DNA of 64,000 bases from a phage. The position numbers and the translations under genes were made by a program. Each line of letters begins with the position of its first letter. Position 1 is the first letter of the stretch. The notes below the pieces were generated by a model. The model had not been told where the DNA came from. It made no database searches and saw only the letters and a program-made list of their open reading frames with translations. Positions 2,317 to 38,665 of this stretch are shown piece by piece. Location of the stretch: the sequence record NC_042307.1; one strand, written 5' to 3'.

Positions 2317-3459
2317 AGGAAGTCTCCAAATTCATTACCCAAATCTTTCAAGGTATCAGTAGAGGTCTCAGTTACCTGACCTACACGGTAGGCTGCACCA
2401 ATCTGGATTTCTTGTGGGGCAGGCTGTAGAGAAGTAGTATCCAACCAGTTCATGATCCACGGAATAGGGTTTTTAGTGATTACTGGTAAGTGACTAGGCC
2501 ATTCTACACCAATGTGCATAAATGCGTTACGCCCCACAAAGTACAAGTATTCTTCTAGAAGTTCTGCATTCAAACCAATCAGACTACGACCTTTGAAGAT
2601 GAAATGACCCCATTCAATTTCAGTTTTAAGAGTTTTCAGGAGTTGTGCTGGTGCTTTAGCCACTGCTTCATCTACCAGATCTTTGTCAAACTGCTGGAAC
2701 ATAATCTGGATGATTGTTTTAGACATCTGAGTATGTAGGGCTTCATCTTTAGCAATCAATTGCAGATTTTTAGCAATACCTTGCAGAATATCGTTCTCTG
2801 CTAACGCAAAGGTACATGCAAAGGATGCGTAGAACTGCATTGCTTCCAGACCGTAGATTGCAAAATAAGCATCTAACAGTTTAGCCTGAGTTTCACGCTT
2901 AACCTCAGGGAACTCAGTTTCTGGATATGTATTGTCACCACGATGATCACGTACTGCGATGAAATACTGACCTAACTGGTACAGTTCATCGAACAGCTCA
3001 ACAGAATCAGCGATACGTGCGAATGCTTCTTGGTTTTTGGTTACAGAATCAATAAATTCTGCCGGATCAGTCAGCACATTACGAATAATATTACTATAAG
3101 CACGACTATGCAGGTCTTCAAAGTAGCTCCACTGCTTGAGCATACCTTCTAGTTCTGGACGACTTACAAGCGGCATAATAGCTGCTTCAGGCGCTCGACT
3201 GATAAAGGAATCAGTTTGGGTCTGCCATGCTAAGTTCAGGAGTGTGATTTCCTGAATTTCACGTGGGAGATTGGGCCATTGTTTCTTATCTGCTTCCAGA
3301 CTGATTTCAGTTTCAGTCCAAAATTGAGAGCGTTGCAGAAGTGCCAGACGTTCTAGTTCTGGATGTGCTACACGTACATAATCTGCGATACCTAGAGAAT
3401 CGCCCCAGGAAAAGATCAGCGTTAGTATGATCCCAATTCAGGTTTAGTAAAGTAGTCAT
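2313..3459 (-). CDS. nrdB: ribonucleotide reductase small subunit NrdB; reading frame interrupted near the 5' end (see findings)
   Basis: frame 0 is open 3437..2313 and aligns with class Ia NrdB (FSWGDSLGIADY.., SQFW.., RAPEAAIMPLVSRPELE.., HSRAYSNIIRN); only plausible ATG (3459..3457) is in another frame. Confidence 0.85.
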
Positions 3460-3594
3460 TGATTTTCCTCTTTCTCACTATTTCAGGAATATTATAGCAA
3501 ATCAGGTAGCGATTAGCAGGTAAAATTATAAACTATCAAGCTCCAATAGTTTCATATCGCGCCACTCTATAGCATCCTCAAGTTCTTGGAATGT

Positions 3595-7506: not shown

Positions 7507-7748
7507 AAATAACACTCCTATAGTGTACTTCGCTTCTAACAGAGGATCAACAAAGAGATCTTGTTTATCAACTTACAAATATATTATAACAAGGTTTACA
7601 GCAAAAAGCAAGTATAATTTTAAATAAACCTATGATATTGCTTTTAAATAAAAAATTTACTTGCTTATAAAGGTAGAAATATGATACTAGATAATCATTT
7701 ATTTATATGCGAAATATTACAGTATTAGATGGCGAAAGAAAATTTTAA

Positions 7749-7777
7749 TTGACATAGTGGATAATGTTTAGTATAAT
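7749..7777 (+). promoter_or_regulatory. consensus sigma70 promoter TTGACA-17-TATAAT
   Basis: exact consensus hexamers at 7749-7754 and 7772-7777. Confidence 0.7.
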
Positions 7778-7800
7778 AGGTGTAAAAATTCTGTGGAGAA

Positions 7801-13665: not shown

Positions 13666-13756
13666 TTTTTATTAGCTGAACTTTGTAATCCGGGCTATTA
13701 GTGCTCGGATTATTACATAATCTTTTCAGTCGATTGATAGTCAAAATAAATTGTCG

Positions 13757-13787
13757 TTGACAATTTGGATGGATTATGTAATAATAT
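13757..13787 (+). promoter_or_regulatory. sigma70-like promoter (TTGACA -35; -10 TAATAT-like) for the HNH gene
   Basis: TTGACA at 13757-13762; exact -10 placement ambiguous. Confidence 0.4.
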
Positions 13788-13804
13788 ATGTATTGGAGGT
13801 GAGG

Positions 13805-14257
13805 ATGTCATTCACACAGCAAGAACTTTTAGATAACTTCCGGTATGAAGAGGGTAAGTTATTTAGAACTACAGGAAGAAATGCAGGGAAAGAATGTTGT
13901 GTTTCTACGGGTAACGGATATTATCGTATATCTCTAGGGAATAGGACTATGCTTCGGCATAGAGCAATATTTTTAATGCATCATGGATACTTACCTGATT
14001 TAGTAGACCATGTGAATACTATAAAAGGTGATGATCGTATTGAAAATCTTAGAGAGCAGACAGTATCCGGTAATCTAAGAAATATCAAATATAAGAAAGG
14101 AATGCATGTTTACCCTTCTGGTAGTAAGAACTGGCAAGTGGTATTTACTATTAACCGTAAACGTATAGTTAAAGGAACATATGACAACTATGAGGTTGCA
14201 TGTTCTATGGCCAAGATGTTTAGAGGTCAATTATACGGTAGGGAATCAATCCAGTAA
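13805..14257 (+). CDS. HNH homing endonuclease
   Basis: MSFTQQELLDNFRYEEGKLF..GYYRISLGNRTMLRHRAIFLMHHGYLPDLVDHVN; GGAGGTGAGG upstream of ATG 13805. Confidence 0.7.
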   Translation: MSFTQQELLDNFRYEEGKLFRTTGRNAGKECCVSTGNGYYRISLGNRTMLRHRAIFLMHHGYLPDLVDHVNTIKGDDRIENLREQTVSGNLRNIKYKKGMHVYPSGSKNWQVVFTINRKRIVKGTYDNYEVACSMAKMFRGQLYGRESIQ

Positions 14258-14265
14258 AATTTCAT

Positions 14266-14295
14266 TTGCAAGGGAGTATTATTTTATAGTATAAT
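14266..14295 (+). promoter_or_regulatory. T5-type promoter (TTGCAA-18-TATAAT) with conserved CATAAATGAGAGA leader but no downstream ORF
   Basis: see findings. Confidence 0.45.
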
Positions 14296-14790
14296 ATTCC
14301 CATAAATGAGAGACATTAGTAAAAATTGATTTTGCTAATTTTTCTTGTTTACAATCCGCGATACGGAACAGTTAGGCTGCCCCATTAAGGGTTGTTTTAA
14401 CTATTACTAGTGTTTATATTGCATTAGTTAATCTTCAATTAAGTGATCTGTGTACCCTGAATTCGGAAAGGTAAATCCAAACCGTGCATATTTAGCTCGT
14501 TATATAGGCAGAGTTTTATATGGGGGTGCGAACGAAAAGAGCAGCGAATGGCGGCACGTACAGTAGTCACCTACCAATAGGATAGTGAGGACAAATAGAA
14601 TCGGCTTAGCGGCCAATGACCTAGGTTCTATTCTGTATATGAGCGAAGAGAGCACAGCACTGAGATATGATAACTTATTCATATTGTTTGATGATAATTG
14701 ATGTTTACGTAAATAGTAGTAATAGTTGTTCTATTCTTTCTGAATAGTCCTAAAGAAAAGATTTCGATTAACCAACACAGGAGTATTGTT

Positions 14791-17580
14791 GTGTTTTCTA
14801 TCCTCCAAGGTCACGCCGGATTTTCTCGTGATTTAGCAACAGGTATTTGGCGAGAAATCAAAGCGGAAGATTATACCTTTGCCAAGCGATTCTCGAAAGA
14901 GCATCCAGAAGGTAAACCAGCTTCTATGCCCTTCAAATTTGATGTAATAGAAGAGCACGACCCACAAAGCCTTGCCGAAATGTTACCCCTTATGAGACGT
15001 TTAACGTCTGATCCTCATATCGTTGCGGTACGAGGTCGATGTCTTGCACCAAAAAATAATGTGCGACGTAAGAAAGGTAACTTTAATGTATCTAATCCTA
15101 GTAATATTATTGCTATGGACGTGGATGGTATCCTAGATACCGGTGGGTACGACAAATTTAATCTTGTTGGTATGGCCCGCCACATTATTAAGATGTTGAA
15201 TAGTATTAGTGAGGATATGTTTCCTCTTGATGCAGGCTTTATAGCTCATGCATCGTCTTCGGCTGGGCTAAAACCAGGTATCCGAATGCACTTAATGCTA
15301 GAATCTAACGTCAAGGTAACTCAGGGTCAGCTAAAGTTCTTATTTACATCTATCAACGATAGCAGTAAGCAAAAATTTGGTTTTGATATTGCCGACCTAG
15401 CTTATTATTCATCTGTCCAGCTCCACTATTTTGCCGACCCCTTATTTAGCGATGGTATTGTTGATCCGTTTAAAGCGGAGAGTAAGCCACGTCTGGTGTA
15501 TGTTAAAGGTTCGAAAGTAAATTTGCCCAATAATCTGGTTGACTATGAAACAACTAGAGGGGAGTTTAAGGAAGAGTTTTATTCCTTACTTGATCAAATT
15601 AAAGGCAAAAAGATTGCTTCTGATAAAGTAGAAGAAACCATCAGCGAGTTAGAAGAGGCTGATGATGGAGTGTATTTGCGTATTATCCCCAAACTATATC
15701 ATAGAGCATTAGAGGATGGGGTTGATTTTGCATGGCTAGAACGTGAGATTAAACCAGCTTTATCTGAATATATTGCAACTAAAGATAACAGTCGTAATAT
15801 TCAAGATTACTTTAATAACGGTCGTAAGCAGGCTCTCAAAGCGTTTGTGAATAACTCCAAACGTGAGATTCCATTAAATCTGAAAGGTGTTCCACTTAAG
15901 AAATTAGAAGTGGATTCTCCACCAGAAGTTCCATACCTGAAGATTAACATTGTGCCCCCAAAAGGCCATATAACATTTGTTAAGGCAAGTCTTGGTACTG
16001 GTAAAACTACGGCAGTAACTAAATGGCTGGACGCAGGTGTTCTTCCTGGCAACTTTTTAGCAGTTACAAATACTAGAGCACTAGTGTCTTCAAATGCTAA
16101 GAAATTTAGTGCAGGACAATATGATAAGTCTGTAGATATGCTTAATTTCAAGCGTGGTGCTATTGACCGTATGTCCACAACTATTCACTCTTTGCACAAG
16201 TTTAAGAGTTTTATTGGTCAAATTGATGCAATCTTTATCGATGAATGTGATGCAGTAATGAATGACTTATTATTCGCCCCCGTTGTTAAACAACGTCGTG
16301 AATGTATTCAGGTTCTTCGGGATATTCTTGCAACTGCAAAAATAATTATATTATCTGATGGTGATATTAGTGCAGAAACAATTGAAGCCTATGGTTCTTT
16401 GATTGATTTTGATAAACCAGTAGCATTTTATAATCATCATCGTAAGATGCTGTCAAAAGCTCACGCTTATGAGTTTCCTGATGAATCCAGTATTTGGGTT
16501 GCACTTCAGACTTCTCTAGAAATGGGTGAGAAGTCCATTCTAGTATCTGATTGTGGGCCTGATGAGCTGAATGAGAAGGGTATGGCACTACGTCGTAATA
16601 CTGGTGCGTTAGTTAAGGAAATCCATTCAAACTCTACCTCAGATGTGGATATTCGACGTATTCTGGATTATACAACTAATGAGCTAATTGATCAACAAAT
16701 TGATTGCTTATTATGTAGTCCATCCGTAACGAGTGGCGTTGACTTCAACTATTTCGATAATGTATTTGTTATTACTAGAACCAGTAATCAGGCGCCGAAC
16801 ATGCGTTTCCAAGCAATCAGGCGCGACCGTGGTGCTCAGAACATCTATTATTTTATTGATAAATCCACTAGTGGGTTCTCCGCAGGTTCTGAACAATATA
16901 ATATTGATGAAGGTTGGCTGGAGTTAGCACAGCAATTATACGCACGTCGTAGAGAGCTGGAATCTAGAAACTATACTAGTACCTTACGTTATTATTTGCT
17001 TGATCAGGGCGCAACTATTGATATTTTCAGCGAAAGCTGGGGAACTATTGAAGGTGCTGGTAAAGAATATACAGAAGAGCGAATCAAAGCTATTCTGCAT
17101 TCAACTCCAGATTATTGTGCCCCACGTCATGCAGATGCATATGAAGCTAAACTACTTCTTGTTCGCTATTATCATCTTGAGTCTATTAAAGATGTAACAG
17201 TTGAGCATGTTGAACAATATATCAAAGATAAACCGAATGATCGAGCTGCATTCTTCCATAAGATGCACGAGATGTTCTGGGAAGATATTAAGAAGTGTTC
17301 AAATGTAACCATTAAACCATTCATAGAAGCTCTGAAAGGTAAGAAGAAAGACTTCTTCCTTAAAACAGGTCAGAGTGCTAACCCAAAATATGCTAGAATG
17401 TATCTTGGTATGATGGGTATTGGTAAGGATATGAACACTGAAAATATCGTAGACTGGTACAGAACCTATTGTAAAATCGAGTGTATGCCGATTCCTTTCA
17501 AATTCATGACTGACGAGGAAAAACATATGCATGATGAAGCAATGTCAGAGCTAGGTGCTAGAAATGACAGTGAAGAATAA
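14791..17580 (+). CDS. putative replication initiation / origin-binding protein with P-loop helicase-like domain (929 aa)
   Basis: Walker A SLGTGKTT, Walker B IFIDECD; GTG start with AGGAG upstream; size and position reminiscent of the T5 origin-binding protein gene. Confidence 0.5.
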   Translation: MFSILQGHAGFSRDLATGIWREIKAEDYTFAKRFSKEHPEGKPASMPFKFDVIEEHDPQSLAEMLPLMRRLTSDPHIVAVRGRCLAPKNNVRRKKGNFNVSNPSNIIAMDVDGILDTGGYDKFNLVGMARHIIKMLNSISEDMFPLDAGFIAHASSSAGLKPGIRMHLMLESNVKVTQGQLKFLFTSINDSSKQKFGFDIADLAYYSSVQLHYFADPLFSDGIVDPFKAESKPRLVYVKGSKVNLPNNLVDYETTRGEFKEEFYSLLDQIKGKKIASDKVEETISELEEADDGVYLRIIPKLYHRALEDGVDFAWLEREIKPALSEYIATKDNSRNIQDYFNNGRKQALKAFVNNSKREIPLNLKGVPLKKLEVDSPPEVPYLKINIVPPKGHITFVKASLGTGKTTAVTKWLDAGVLPGNFLAVTNTRALVSSNAKKFSAGQYDKSVDMLNFKRGAIDRMSTTIHSLHKFKSFIGQIDAIFIDECDAVMNDLLFAPVVKQRRECIQVLRDILATAKIIILSDGDISAETIEAYGSLIDFDKPVAFYNHHRKMLSKAHAYEFPDESSIWVALQTSLEMGEKSILVSDCGPDELNEKGMALRRNTGALVKEIHSNSTSDVDIRRILDYTTNELIDQQIDCLLCSPSVTSGVDFNYFDNVFVITRTSNQAPNMRFQAIRRDRGAQNIYYFIDKSTSGFSAGSEQYNIDEGWLELAQQLYARRRELESRNYTSTLRYYLLDQGATIDIFSESWGTIEGAGKEYTEERIKAILHSTPDYCAPRHADAYEAKLLLVRYYHLESIKDVTVEHVEQYIKDKPNDRAAFFHKMHEMFWEDIKKCSNVTIKPFIEALKGKKKDFFLKTGQSANPKYARMYLGMMGIGKDMNTENIVDWYRTYCKIECMPIPFKFMTDEEKHMHDEAMSELGARNDSEE

Positions 17581-22516: not shown

Positions 22517-23276
22517 ACTGAACTGGAACGTAGAAGGTGTAACCGAGTCTCTGAAAGCAAAAGCCACTGCTCTGGGTGTTGCTGTAATCTCTCAAGAACA
22601 AGTAGCTGCTATCGCTGCTGAACTGGCTGCTGAAACTGGCAAAGATGTTACTGCTCGCTCTGTTGGCTCTAAGCTGCGTAAAGAAGGTTTTGAAGTACAA
22701 AAAGCTAACGAAGTACAGAAATCCCCGTGGACTCCTGAGCAGGAAGCTGAACTGGTTGATTTCCTGAACGCTCATGCTGGTCAGTATACCTATGCTGAAA
22801 TCGCTGCTGCTGTAGCTGGTGGTCAGTTCGGTGCTAAACAGGTACAGGGTAAGATCCTGAGTCTGGAAATGACCGCTTCTGTTAAACCAACTGAAAAAGC
22901 TGCTGCTGTTCGTTCCTTCACTCCGGATGAAGAAACTGATTTTGTTAATCAGGTTGTTGCTGGAGCTACTATTGAAGCTATCGCTGCTCACTTCGGTCGC
23001 AATATTAAGCAGATCCGTGGTAAAGCTCTGAGCCTGCTTCGTGAAGGTCGTATCGCCGCTATGCCGGTACAGGAAACTTCAAGTGCTAAAACTCGTGAAG
23101 ATCTGTTAGAAGGTCTGGATCTGGCTAACATGACTGTTGCTGAGATCGCTGAGAAAACTGGTAAGTCTGAGCGCGGTGTTAAATCTATGCTGTCTCGTCG
23201 TGGTCTGGTTGCTAAGGACTATGATGGTGCCGCTAAGCGTGCTAAACTGGATGCAAAAGCTGCGGCTGCTGAATAA
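22509..23276 (+). CDS. hypothetical abundant protein with four internal HTH-like repeats, possibly a DNA-binding protein
   Basis: repeats EIAAAVAGGQFGAKQVQGKILSLE / AIAAHFGRNIKQIRGKALSLLREG / EIAEKTGKSERGVKSMLSRRGL; strongly host-optimal codons. Confidence 0.45.
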   Translation: MSKLNWNVEGVTESLKAKATALGVAVISQEQVAAIAAELAAETGKDVTARSVGSKLRKEGFEVQKANEVQKSPWTPEQEAELVDFLNAHAGQYTYAEIAAAVAGGQFGAKQVQGKILSLEMTASVKPTEKAAAVRSFTPDEETDFVNQVVAGATIEAIAAHFGRNIKQIRGKALSLLREGRIAAMPVQETSSAKTREDLLEGLDLANMTVAEIAEKTGKSERGVKSMLSRRGLVAKDYDGAAKRAKLDAKAAAAE

Positions 23277-37707: not shown

Positions 37708-37957
37708 TTTTGTTGATCCTAATCAAATAGAGATTGATGCTAATCAACACCCTAATTTCTATGGTGTGATTGTAGCACCCCCCTACCCTTGATAAGGTAG
37801 TACTAAAAGTGGATATGTTTGGCAATATGGAGCAATGGAAAGAAGAAGGGTTTATTAAACTGTGTTCTTAGTCTCAAGATCCTACCCTTAGGGCTATGCT
37901 TGCCGTGTATAACTTAGGTATTATCGCAGGTAGTAAAGAGTAATAAAACCCCCCCCC

Positions 37958-37993
37958 CTCCAGTGGACAATCCACTGGGGTTTTCTCTTATTT
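37958..37993. terminator. terminator hairpin between the convergent early (plus) and late (minus) regions
   Basis: CCAGTGGA-CAA-TCCACTGG then TTTTCTCTTATTT on plus; preceded by a C10 tract at 37949-37958. Confidence 0.65.
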
Positions 37994-38155
37994 AGTAAGG
38001 AGTTGTTTTACTAATTCCTTTAGTTTAGTAATCTTTTGTACTGAGAGGGTGCAAAACGAACCTCTTGCATTTTGTGTTTTCATATGTACATAAGAACAGC
38101 CTAAGAATCAGCGAACTGTTAATACAGTAGAACATGCATTGCGTTGCTAGGATAA

Positions 38156-38665
38156 TCAAAATTCAGGCTTGTTTCGCAGCAATATTTTTTCAGTGGCAAG
38201 TTGCTCCTGGAATGCTGTACGCTGTTGATCAAACGACTGAGCAGAGATCGCGCCAGCGATGGTACTAGTGCTAGAGGTGATCGCAGTGTTCAGCTCTGCA
38301 AAACCCTGGACAGACGCCAATAGGTTTTGAGTATTCTATTGGGTAATAGCGTTCAGGTTCATTGCGCCTGTGTTAGCGATTGCCAGATTGGTTGCACCCT
38401 GACCCTGTACAACAGTTAGGCCCAGATTGTTCAGTCCGCTCTGAATGGATTCGATATCGCTTACCAGTGAAGTAGTCAGCATGTTTGCAGCAGTACCAGC
38501 AACGGAAACCGCGCCATCCACACCACCAACGCCAACACCACGACCACCCACACCATTACCTAACCAGGAATCAATCAGCGCACCACTAAAAGCAGCGATA
38601 CCAGGCATAGCACCGTCACCACCGAGACCGCCCATGTTGGTCGGTAAAAGAGTCCTGTCAGACAT
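38156..38665 (-). CDS. glycine/alanine-rich small protein; 109-codon ORF ends at in-frame TAG 38336-38338, frame stays open for 59 more codons to TGA 38156-38158
   Basis: ATG 38665 with AGGAG 8 nt upstream; downstream frame verified codon by codon. Confidence 0.5.

Follow-up and report, generated by a model that had tools for sequence, protein, structure and literature searches.

Why would a T5-like phage keep roughly half a kilobase without an evident gene between a strong early promoter and the start of an essential helicase gene? We addressed this question in a 64,000-nucleotide (nt) stretch of phage DNA (NC_042307.1, hereafter the window), where the locus spans positions 14258–14790 and ends directly before the GTG start codon of the helicase gene D2. 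T5 has long served as a model phage, and its relatives are being sequenced by the hundred with therapy and biocontrol in view; in T5-like genomes this stretch is left blank or given doubtful small open reading frames (ORFs). The window belongs to such a phage: 14200–14850 is 99.4% identical to Escherichia phage AKFV33, and the region is common to 439 phage records. D2 of T5 has been characterized as an unusual bipolar superfamily 2 (SF2) helicase, and phages with an amber mutation in the gene fail to make DNA (Wong et al. 2013, PMC3632103).

Here, we show by comparing related genomes that the predicted helices P1, P3, P4, P5, P-L1 and P-L2 are maintained by compensatory changes on the transcribed strand of this locus. 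Our best reading is that it encodes a large structured RNA of ~455 nt, running from 14302 to ~14756, which would represent an undescribed family of the T5-like phages (Demerecviridae). From the comparative models, we put the probability of a functional structured RNA element at about 0.9. An initial annotation of the locus had offered a non-coding RNA, a long regulated leader and a replication origin as explanations, and the two RNA readings are supported as a class by a region that is conserved, non-coding and held together by compensatory helices on the transcribed strand.

Helices maintained on the transcribed strand

The element occurs in two alleles, A (the window, T5 and Epseptimavirus) and B (JLBYU40, chee24, DT57C and Gostya9). 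Its predicted parts, in window coordinates, are as follows:

14308–14346 (14308–14324 / 14330–14346), + strand: P1, the 5'-terminal hairpin; a 5' hairpin is present in every lineage
14360–14383, + strand: conserved motif GAUACGGAACAGUUAGGCUGCCCC, including the small hairpin CAG-UUAGG-CUG; invariant in alignment A1
14398–14438, + strand: 5' strand of P3, an AU-rich helix of ~35 bp; pairs with 14688–14728
14442–14458, + strand: 5' strand of P4, GUG-AU-CUGUG; pairs with 14647–14661
14459–14646, + strand: multibranch core, containing P5 and P-L1
14558–14563 / 14633–14638, + strand: P5, inside the multibranch core
14594–14602 / 14624–14632, + strand: P-L1 hairpin, whose loop carries GGCUUAGCGGCC at 14603–14614
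14647–14661, + strand: 3' strand of P4; covaries with 14442–14458
14664–14685, + strand: P-L2 hairpin at the P3/P4 junction; compensatory changes in both alleles
14688–14728, + strand: 3' strand of P3, an AATAG-rich run; covaries with 14398–14438
14731–14747, + strand: 3' hairpin CUAUUC-UUUCU-GAAUAG; CUAUC-CUU-GAUAG in the Klebsiella lineage
14757–14776, + strand: variable single-stranded linker, AU-rich, joining the folded element to the helicase start; least conserved part in alignments A1, A5 and A6
14779–14793, + strand: Shine-Dalgarno sequence AGGAG (14779–14783) and GTG start codon (14791–14793) of D2; invariant in A1

The RNAalifold consensus of allele A, built from 17 sequences, contains 153 predicted pairs with 99.9% of cells paired and two cells broken, and the same analysis of allele B (14 sequences) gave 157 pairs, 99.7% paired. 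Both sides have changed in 6 pairs of allele A and in 6 further pairs of allele B, compared with 0–1 in either allele when the 3' partners are slid (by 1–3 columns in allele A), counts that derive mostly from one or two deep splits and tally sequences rather than independent events. One-sided changes affect another 12 pairs of allele A, and every one of them (12/12) retains pairing through G.U on the + strand. The covariation score of this allele is 0.047 against 0.031 in shuffles, and none of 500 shuffles equalled it. The + strand also folds more stably (−126.8 kcal/mol, z −2.98) than the − strand (−97.7 kcal/mol, z −1.98), and therefore selection acts on the transcribed strand.

Covariation extends over the individual helices. 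P3 is written as AACUGUUAC/GUAACAGUU in allele B and as AACUAUUAC/GUAAUAGUU in allele A, forming 31+7 pairs in the former and 19+16 pairs with a small internal loop in the latter, both maintained by covariation. P-L2 has changed from A-U to G-C at columns 364:383 in allele A and from U-A to G-C at 367:383 in allele B, and the core holds compensatory pairs at columns 259:335, 266:290, 294:330 and 295:329. P1 shows no sign of being an intrinsic terminator or attenuator: it is rich in A and U, the U-rich stretch on its 3' side is itself engaged in pairing, and the terminator scan was silent there.

P-L1 accounts for repeats that the initial annotation had pointed out. The 7-bp inverted repeat at 14594–14600 / 14626–14632 is present and forms the stem of this conserved hairpin, and the 9-bp direct repeat TTCTATTCT at 14626 and 14729 is present too. 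Taken alone, neither exceeds chance; it is covariation that gives them significance. In Epseptimavirus-type relatives, which are ~93% identical overall, the P-L1 stem AUAGAA/UUCUAU has become UCAGAA/UUCUGA through two compensatory double changes, and this same change converts the first copy of TTCTATTCT to TTCTGATCT, abolishing the direct repeat. Since the copy changed together with its P-L1 partner, each copy belongs to a different helix, and the pair does not make an iteron. The 'AATAG-rich iteron-like runs' described at 14700–14750 likewise dissolve into the 3' strand of P3.

The conservation is that of nucleotides rather than of a protein. As had been proposed, the stretch before the GTG at 14791 is non-coding: 14258–14790 contains no ORF of at least 80 amino acids (aa) on either strand, and none of the short ORFs keeps its strand or frame from one lineage to another. 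The ATG at 14307 indeed yields just 7 codons, but it is not the only one, as had been thought, since ORFs of 38–60 aa occur on both strands. The longest stop-free stretch switches strand and frame among lineages, and translated similarity is equal in several frames and on both strands, the pattern of nucleotide-level conservation. We found neither an in-frame conserved ORF nor codon-preserving substitutions of the kind that mark a protein-coding gene. It is scarcely credible that the region lacks a function of its own, either as leftover mosaic DNA or as a set of short unannotated protein genes, even though some GenBank records annotate one to three small hypothetical proteins here and homing-endonuclease traffic and optional insertions make the locus recombinationally active. 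Single-nucleotide indels within alleles, substitutions that keep helices instead of codons and a core better conserved than the adjoining genes all speak against it.

Conservation, modular exchange and distribution

Compared with Epseptimavirus-type phages, the window is 91% identical in the core, 86% in the first 900 nt of D2 and 74% in the upstream gene; purifying selection thus constrains the RNA more tightly than the adjoining genes.

A different pattern separates the two alleles. Identity is 100% over the first 96 nt and 86% over the last 65 nt, whereas the 330-nt core between them (window 14398–14728, compared with L003 703–1035) is only 45% identical; the neighbouring genes are 85% (D2) and 92% (upstream gene) identical. 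Hence the core has been swapped as a cassette within a scaffold that stays fixed, and such exchange would suggest a role in an arms race or in specificity.

Further length variation is found just after P1, where 51 T5-like records (~12%), including DT57C, NR01 and phiR2-01, carry an extra 95-nt module with hairpin potential. In Gostya9 (L005) it lies at ~643–740, corresponding to window ~14346. The module is found in both allele A and allele B backgrounds, always as a single copy and always at this locus, which is the behaviour of an expansion segment and not of a mobile repeat. KKP_3822 (L007) has a T/C-rich expansion at the same site.

A long ORF-free gap with the same promoter type upstream of D2 recurs in further phage groups beyond those of Escherichia and Salmonella: Klebsiella phages of the Sugarland type (73% D2 identity), Pectobacterium phages DU_PP_V and My1 (68% and 65%), the metagenomic lineage L092 (68%), Proteus phages Stubb and PM135 (62%) and Providencia phages (55%). 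Single-sequence folds and duplex predictions give these versions a shared order of P1, ACGGAACAGUUAGGCUG motif, P3, P4, core, P-L2, 3' hairpin, linker and ribosome-binding site (RBS), with long closing helices predicted for the Providencia and Proteus versions too. The 14360–14383 motif is found in the Klebsiella, Pectobacterium and L092 lineages as well; its cross-lineage form is AUAC(G/A)GAACAGU(U/C)NGGCUG, with ACGGAACAGUUAGGCUG nearly invariant, and the CGG-UUAGG-CCG of L092 is a compensatory change in its hairpin. The P-L1 loop GCUUAGCGGC is near-invariant, and its motif GCUUAGCGG persists across phages from T5 to those of Providencia and Aeromonas, with the variants CCUUAGCGG in Proteus phages and ACUUAGCGG in My1. 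A second exact copy of GCTTAGCGGC lies in a coding region on the − strand (window 23229–23238), probably by chance; allowing at most one mismatch, the window has five matches to GCTTAGCGGC against 2.0 expected.

The helices themselves persist across these groups. P3 is predicted to form at least 30 bp of double-stranded RNA (dsRNA) with few interruptions in every lineage examined. P4, a G+C-richer helix of the general form NNN-AU-CUNNN / NNNAG-NNN, covaries in its inner part in every lineage (CUGUG/CACAG, CUGCG/CGCAG, CUACA/UGUAG, CUGUA/UACAG and CUAGAA/UUCUAG). P-L2 stems vary in other lineages, where the loop consensus is GUUGCCA.

Because the central domains are not reliably alignable across lineages, we used an alignment-free arm test that compares the duplex energy of helix arms taken from the same lineage with that of arms swapped between lineages. 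Matched arms paired more stably for P1 (−17.8 vs −8.2 kcal/mol; permutation p about 5e-5), for P-L1 (−12.05 vs −7.21 kcal/mol; p<5e-5), for P3 and P4 together (−42.3 vs −28.1 kcal/mol; the true pairing was the best of 5040 permutations) and for P5 (−14.3 vs −9.9 kcal/mol; 9/5040 permutations equally good). The left core could be aligned across allele B, the two Pectobacterium phages and L092, and it contains a compensatory change in 13 of 23 pairs. A covariance model built on the left core (R1) recovers just these versions, and the Pectobacterium and L092 versions are also nearer to allele B than to allele A.

In other lineages, the arrangement around D2 differs. A promoter of consensus form, TTGACA-17-TATAAT, lies between the element and D2 in Proteus phages, 66 nt ahead of the gene, and in Aeromonas phage TS3 a strong terminator hairpin (−32.8 kcal/mol, z −5.07) followed by U6 stands between the syntenic non-coding region and D2.

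The TS3 region (OP820700; L043 1–1309, L096 57–1646) comprises ~1.6 kb without annotated genes, from D2 to a divergent nrdD. It has a T5-like promoter and leader and a perfect hairpin, CCCGAAAA-GCUUAGCGG-UUUUCGGG. A GACGGAAC...UUAGGCU motif lies ~240 nt downstream of the GCUUAGCGG hairpin, the reverse of the T5 order, and the region may hold two RNA modules. Vibrio phages Brizo and Ceto (L041 690–1417; L082) have ~650 nt of non-coding, G+C-richer DNA after a consensus promoter upstream of D2, with compensatory changes between the two phages and an optional ~95-nt insertion in Ceto; we regard it as a candidate homologue only. In the metagenomic relatives L095 and L079, whose D2 is 43% identical, the element is absent, and D2 is preceded by a short AT-rich intergenic region with a divergent gene upstream.

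Searches for known relatives of the RNA returned nothing beyond this phage group. Covariance-model and RNA-fold scans had been suggested as a check on the locus, and they gave a divided answer: fold and covariation support the element, and known models do not recognize it. None of the 4227 models of Rfam 15 matched anywhere in the window at the gathering threshold; at E<=10 the element region gave chance-level matches only, and at E<=5 nine related lineages gave matches only on an upstream terminator. A scan for transfer RNA and transfer-messenger RNA predicted none, and blastn against 5,426 E. coli genomes returned only 36-nt chance matches. The pattern GAACAGTNNGGCTGC, a gap of 200–230 nt and GCTTAGCGG occurred in IMG/VR solely in T5-like genomes of 96–123 kb and matched once, by chance, in 185,579 prokaryotic species (one genome each); looser two-part DNA patterns over IMG/VR gave mostly chance matches. 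In the literature searched, neither a description of this RNA nor a T5 transcript map turned up.

Specific resemblances were also pursued and rejected. In the Klebsiella phages, ACAGAAC..CCGGCU recalls the J2/4–P4 strand of RNase P RNA, and an AGUCC close to the 3' end resembles CR-I with its bulged U. P4 of bacterial RNase P RNA pairs a 5' CR-I with a 3' CR-V, and the motif strands here stand in the opposite order; no RNase P model matched at E<=10 in any lineage, and the arm test did not support an RNase P-like long-range P4 helix (5/24 permutations equally good). Mimicry of the 16S 3' end or of 5S rRNA, suggested by short motifs in common, was dismissed because the motifs are not collinear and no model matched.

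The early promoter and the helicase gene

The element is framed by the following features:

13751–14257, + strand: HNH homing-endonuclease gene (Pfam HNH_3, E 2.9e-11); orf111 in AKFV33
14266–14295, + strand: early sigma-70 promoter TTGCAA-18-TATAAT, matching the consensus at 10 of 12 positions
14791–17580, + strand: D2 helicase gene, 929 aa, GTG start; annotated as 'replication origin binding protein'

The T5-type promoter and its conserved leader were correctly recognized by the initial annotation. AKFV33 carries a promoter annotation at this position, T5 (AY587007) has 'putative early promoter T5P32' there, and the leader CATAAATGAGAGA comes next. The pattern TATAAT-N6-16-TGAGAG occurs six times in the window, all on the + strand, against a chance expectation of 0.34, and the promoter at 14266–14295 is therefore a genuine member of an early-promoter family. 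The six sites (10549, 14290, 18283, 20526, 31278 and 31379) share a −10 box followed by a (C/T)ATAAAT...TGAGAG leader, in what looks like a family with a conserved initial transcribed sequence. Judging from the leaders of T5 promoters, transcription would start near 14302. The promoter had been called an orphan, a description we reject, as it is the evident promoter of the helicase gene starting at 14791.

The HNH gene is an optional insertion that T5, chee24, bux and Gostya9 lack (alignment A1). In phages without it, the upstream operon ends in a rho-independent terminator that is followed by the ancestral promoter (T5P32 in T5); there the leader reads AUUGAGAGA, and the ATG of 14307 is absent. 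The insertion site lies between this terminator and the ancestral promoter (window 13751–14301), and the insertion brings its own copy of the promoter together with approximately the first 40 nt of the leader. Both promoter copies persist in tandem in Shivani (L002 1559–1700); recombination between the two appears to have left the window with the HNH-borne copy alone.

At the other end of the element, the gene at 14791 had been taken for a putative origin-binding protein. Its GTG start and its database annotation stand, and the basis for origin binding is slight: the Pfam Herpes_ori_bp match is confined to residues 389–533, and the label derives merely from weak similarity between this helicase motor and that of herpesvirus UL9. 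Elsewhere in the window, ORFs of at least 80 aa are also absent from 3177–3594, 7516–7800 and 37826–38335, the last of which coincides with a switch in GC skew and gene orientation.

Possible roles of the RNA

For T5-like phages, the D2 transcript must begin with this RNA, as its first 490 nt. The mechanism we propose starts from this arrangement. The strong early promoter would transcribe the RNA as the 5' part of the essential D2 helicase message. P3, the 35-bp AU-rich clamp of the core, would serve as a dsRNA substrate of the RNase III type, and the AU-rich linker before the ribosome-binding site as a site of the RNase E type. Long, near-perfect dsRNA stems are RNase III substrates in enterobacteria, and P3 offers the ~20 bp or more of near-continuous dsRNA that such a site takes. 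Cutting at P3 or in the linker would free a stable core RNA of 290–450 nt, still held together by what is left of the stem, and the D2 mRNA would keep only a short leader starting at a small hairpin. Once excised, the molecule would work as an RNA, its invariant loops most plausibly contacting a phage or host partner, and processing would couple production of the RNA to expression of D2.

On these comparisons, we slightly favour a processed RNA that does more than control D2 in cis. The evidence that the element is more than a leader comes from the Proteus promoter between element and D2, from the TS3 terminator and from the lineage with 43% D2 identity that lacks the element. A more specific form of this proposal, which we put forward tentatively, is an ornate non-coding RNA acting in trans, cut from the D2 transcript at the RNase III-type stem, whose loops GCUUAGCGGC and ACGGAACAGUUAGGCUG would assemble with a partner, for example in a replication or packaging ribonucleoprotein, as a decoy for host defence or for an RNA-binding protein, or as a catalyst.

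Several points weigh against a processed, independently acting RNA. All structures are thermodynamic and comparative predictions, and the RNase III and RNase E cleavages are drawn only from helix length and composition. The inner domains are weakly conserved between lineages; with filters off, the R1 model was non-significant for allele A and for the Klebsiella, Providencia, Proteus, Aeromonas and Vibrio versions, and an nhmmer profile found one copy in the window and did not reach the Proteus, Aeromonas and Vibrio versions. The homology of the distant versions therefore rests on motifs, position and architecture. The element always stands directly upstream of D2, which fits a cis role equally well, and T5-like phages have no terminator between element and D2 and no strong internal promoter, so that the element may be a simple cis-acting leader.

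Such a leader would be a folded 5' untranslated region that sets the amount or timing of D2 synthesis and has no role off its own mRNA, possibly by protecting the mRNA 5' end, through RNase III cleavage affecting translation, or by binding a protein or ligand that alters access to the RBS. The lambda N leader and the early RNase III sites of T7 are phage precedents. The constant position and orientation of the element make this a serious rival, as does the promoter at 14266–14295, the sole evident one for D2 in T5-like phages. A hairpin, CACAG/UUGUG (14777–14781 / 14789–14793), covers part of the RBS and the start codon and has undergone one-sided, pair-preserving changes, and the consensus fold of allele B pairs nt 49–63 with the start region. 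This latter pairing of a 5' segment is not conserved: start-codon sequestration by the segment downstream of P1 failed the arm test across lineages (matched −6.2 vs swapped −7.3 kcal/mol; 4694/5040 permutations equally good). Moreover, ~450 nt with near-invariant loops far exceeds what known translational operators need, no Rfam riboswitch or leader family matches, and the Proteus promoter, the TS3 terminator and the D2 lineage without an element tell against a purely cis role. We rate a purely cis-acting leader as rather unlikely, below the processed RNA.

The third explanation offered by the initial annotation, a replication origin beside its initiator, loses the features cited for it. An iteron-type origin is built on at least three conserved direct repeats and an AT-rich unwinding element, and the locus has only the two-copy 9-mer; all of the repeats are strands of covarying helices. 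GC skew does not switch at 14.5 kb, its sign changing at ~8 kb and ~38 kb, where gene orientation changes. An RNA-primed version keeps low support and seems to us improbable: the folded RNA, likened to ColE1 RNA II, the T7 primary origin and T4 oriF/oriG, would persist as an RNA–DNA hybrid that primes synthesis or opens the DNA for D2 as initiator helicase. This would make sense of a strong promoter followed by ~490 nt of conserved folded RNA, adjoining a helicase needed for T5 DNA replication, and of the G-runs in the core (for example GGGGG at 14521–14525). The locus also lies at 48.6–49% of the length of the T5 genome, which replicates from internal origins (Bourguignon 1976, as cited in PMC3632103) that have yet to be defined in sequence. 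Beside the missing iterons and the unswitched skew, the element contains no minus-strand promoter-like site in 14300–14790 that could supply an antisense regulator of the RNA I type. The 'origin-binding' name of D2 lends little, given its weak UL9 motor similarity, and one D2 lineage does without the element. The replacement of the central 330 nt by a 45%-identical cassette with the flanks kept fits a modular RNA more easily. Nothing in the sequence requires a ColE1-like primer role.

The sequence basis for an iteron-type origin here is thereby removed, and the 'origin-binding' gene label is uninformative about this DNA. A conserved early RNA of ~450 nt tied to an essential helicase would join the very few large structured RNAs known from virulent coliphages.

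Among known systems, ColE1 RNA II and the primed origins of T4 and T7 resemble the T5 element in having a promoter followed by ~500 nt of folded RNA beside replication functions. Unlike them, it has no antisense regulator promoter, conserved DNA repeats, unwinding element or skew signal; what it conserves is RNA pairing, including G.U on one strand. The OLE, GOLLD, ROOL and raiA classes are likewise several hundred nt long, multibranched and found through covariation and conserved loops, and GOLLD and ROOL are also found in phages. The T5 element matches none of them in sequence or structure, is confined to Demerecviridae and forms a fixed 5' part of a helicase transcript. Closest to the processing that we envisage are the lambda N leader, the R sites of T7 early mRNA and the stems of rRNA precursors, in which a long, near-perfect stem brackets an upstream folded domain. 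The RNase III-processed leaders are simple hairpins of 20–30 bp, whereas the core inside P3 is multibranched, conserved and ~290 nt long, with invariant loops.

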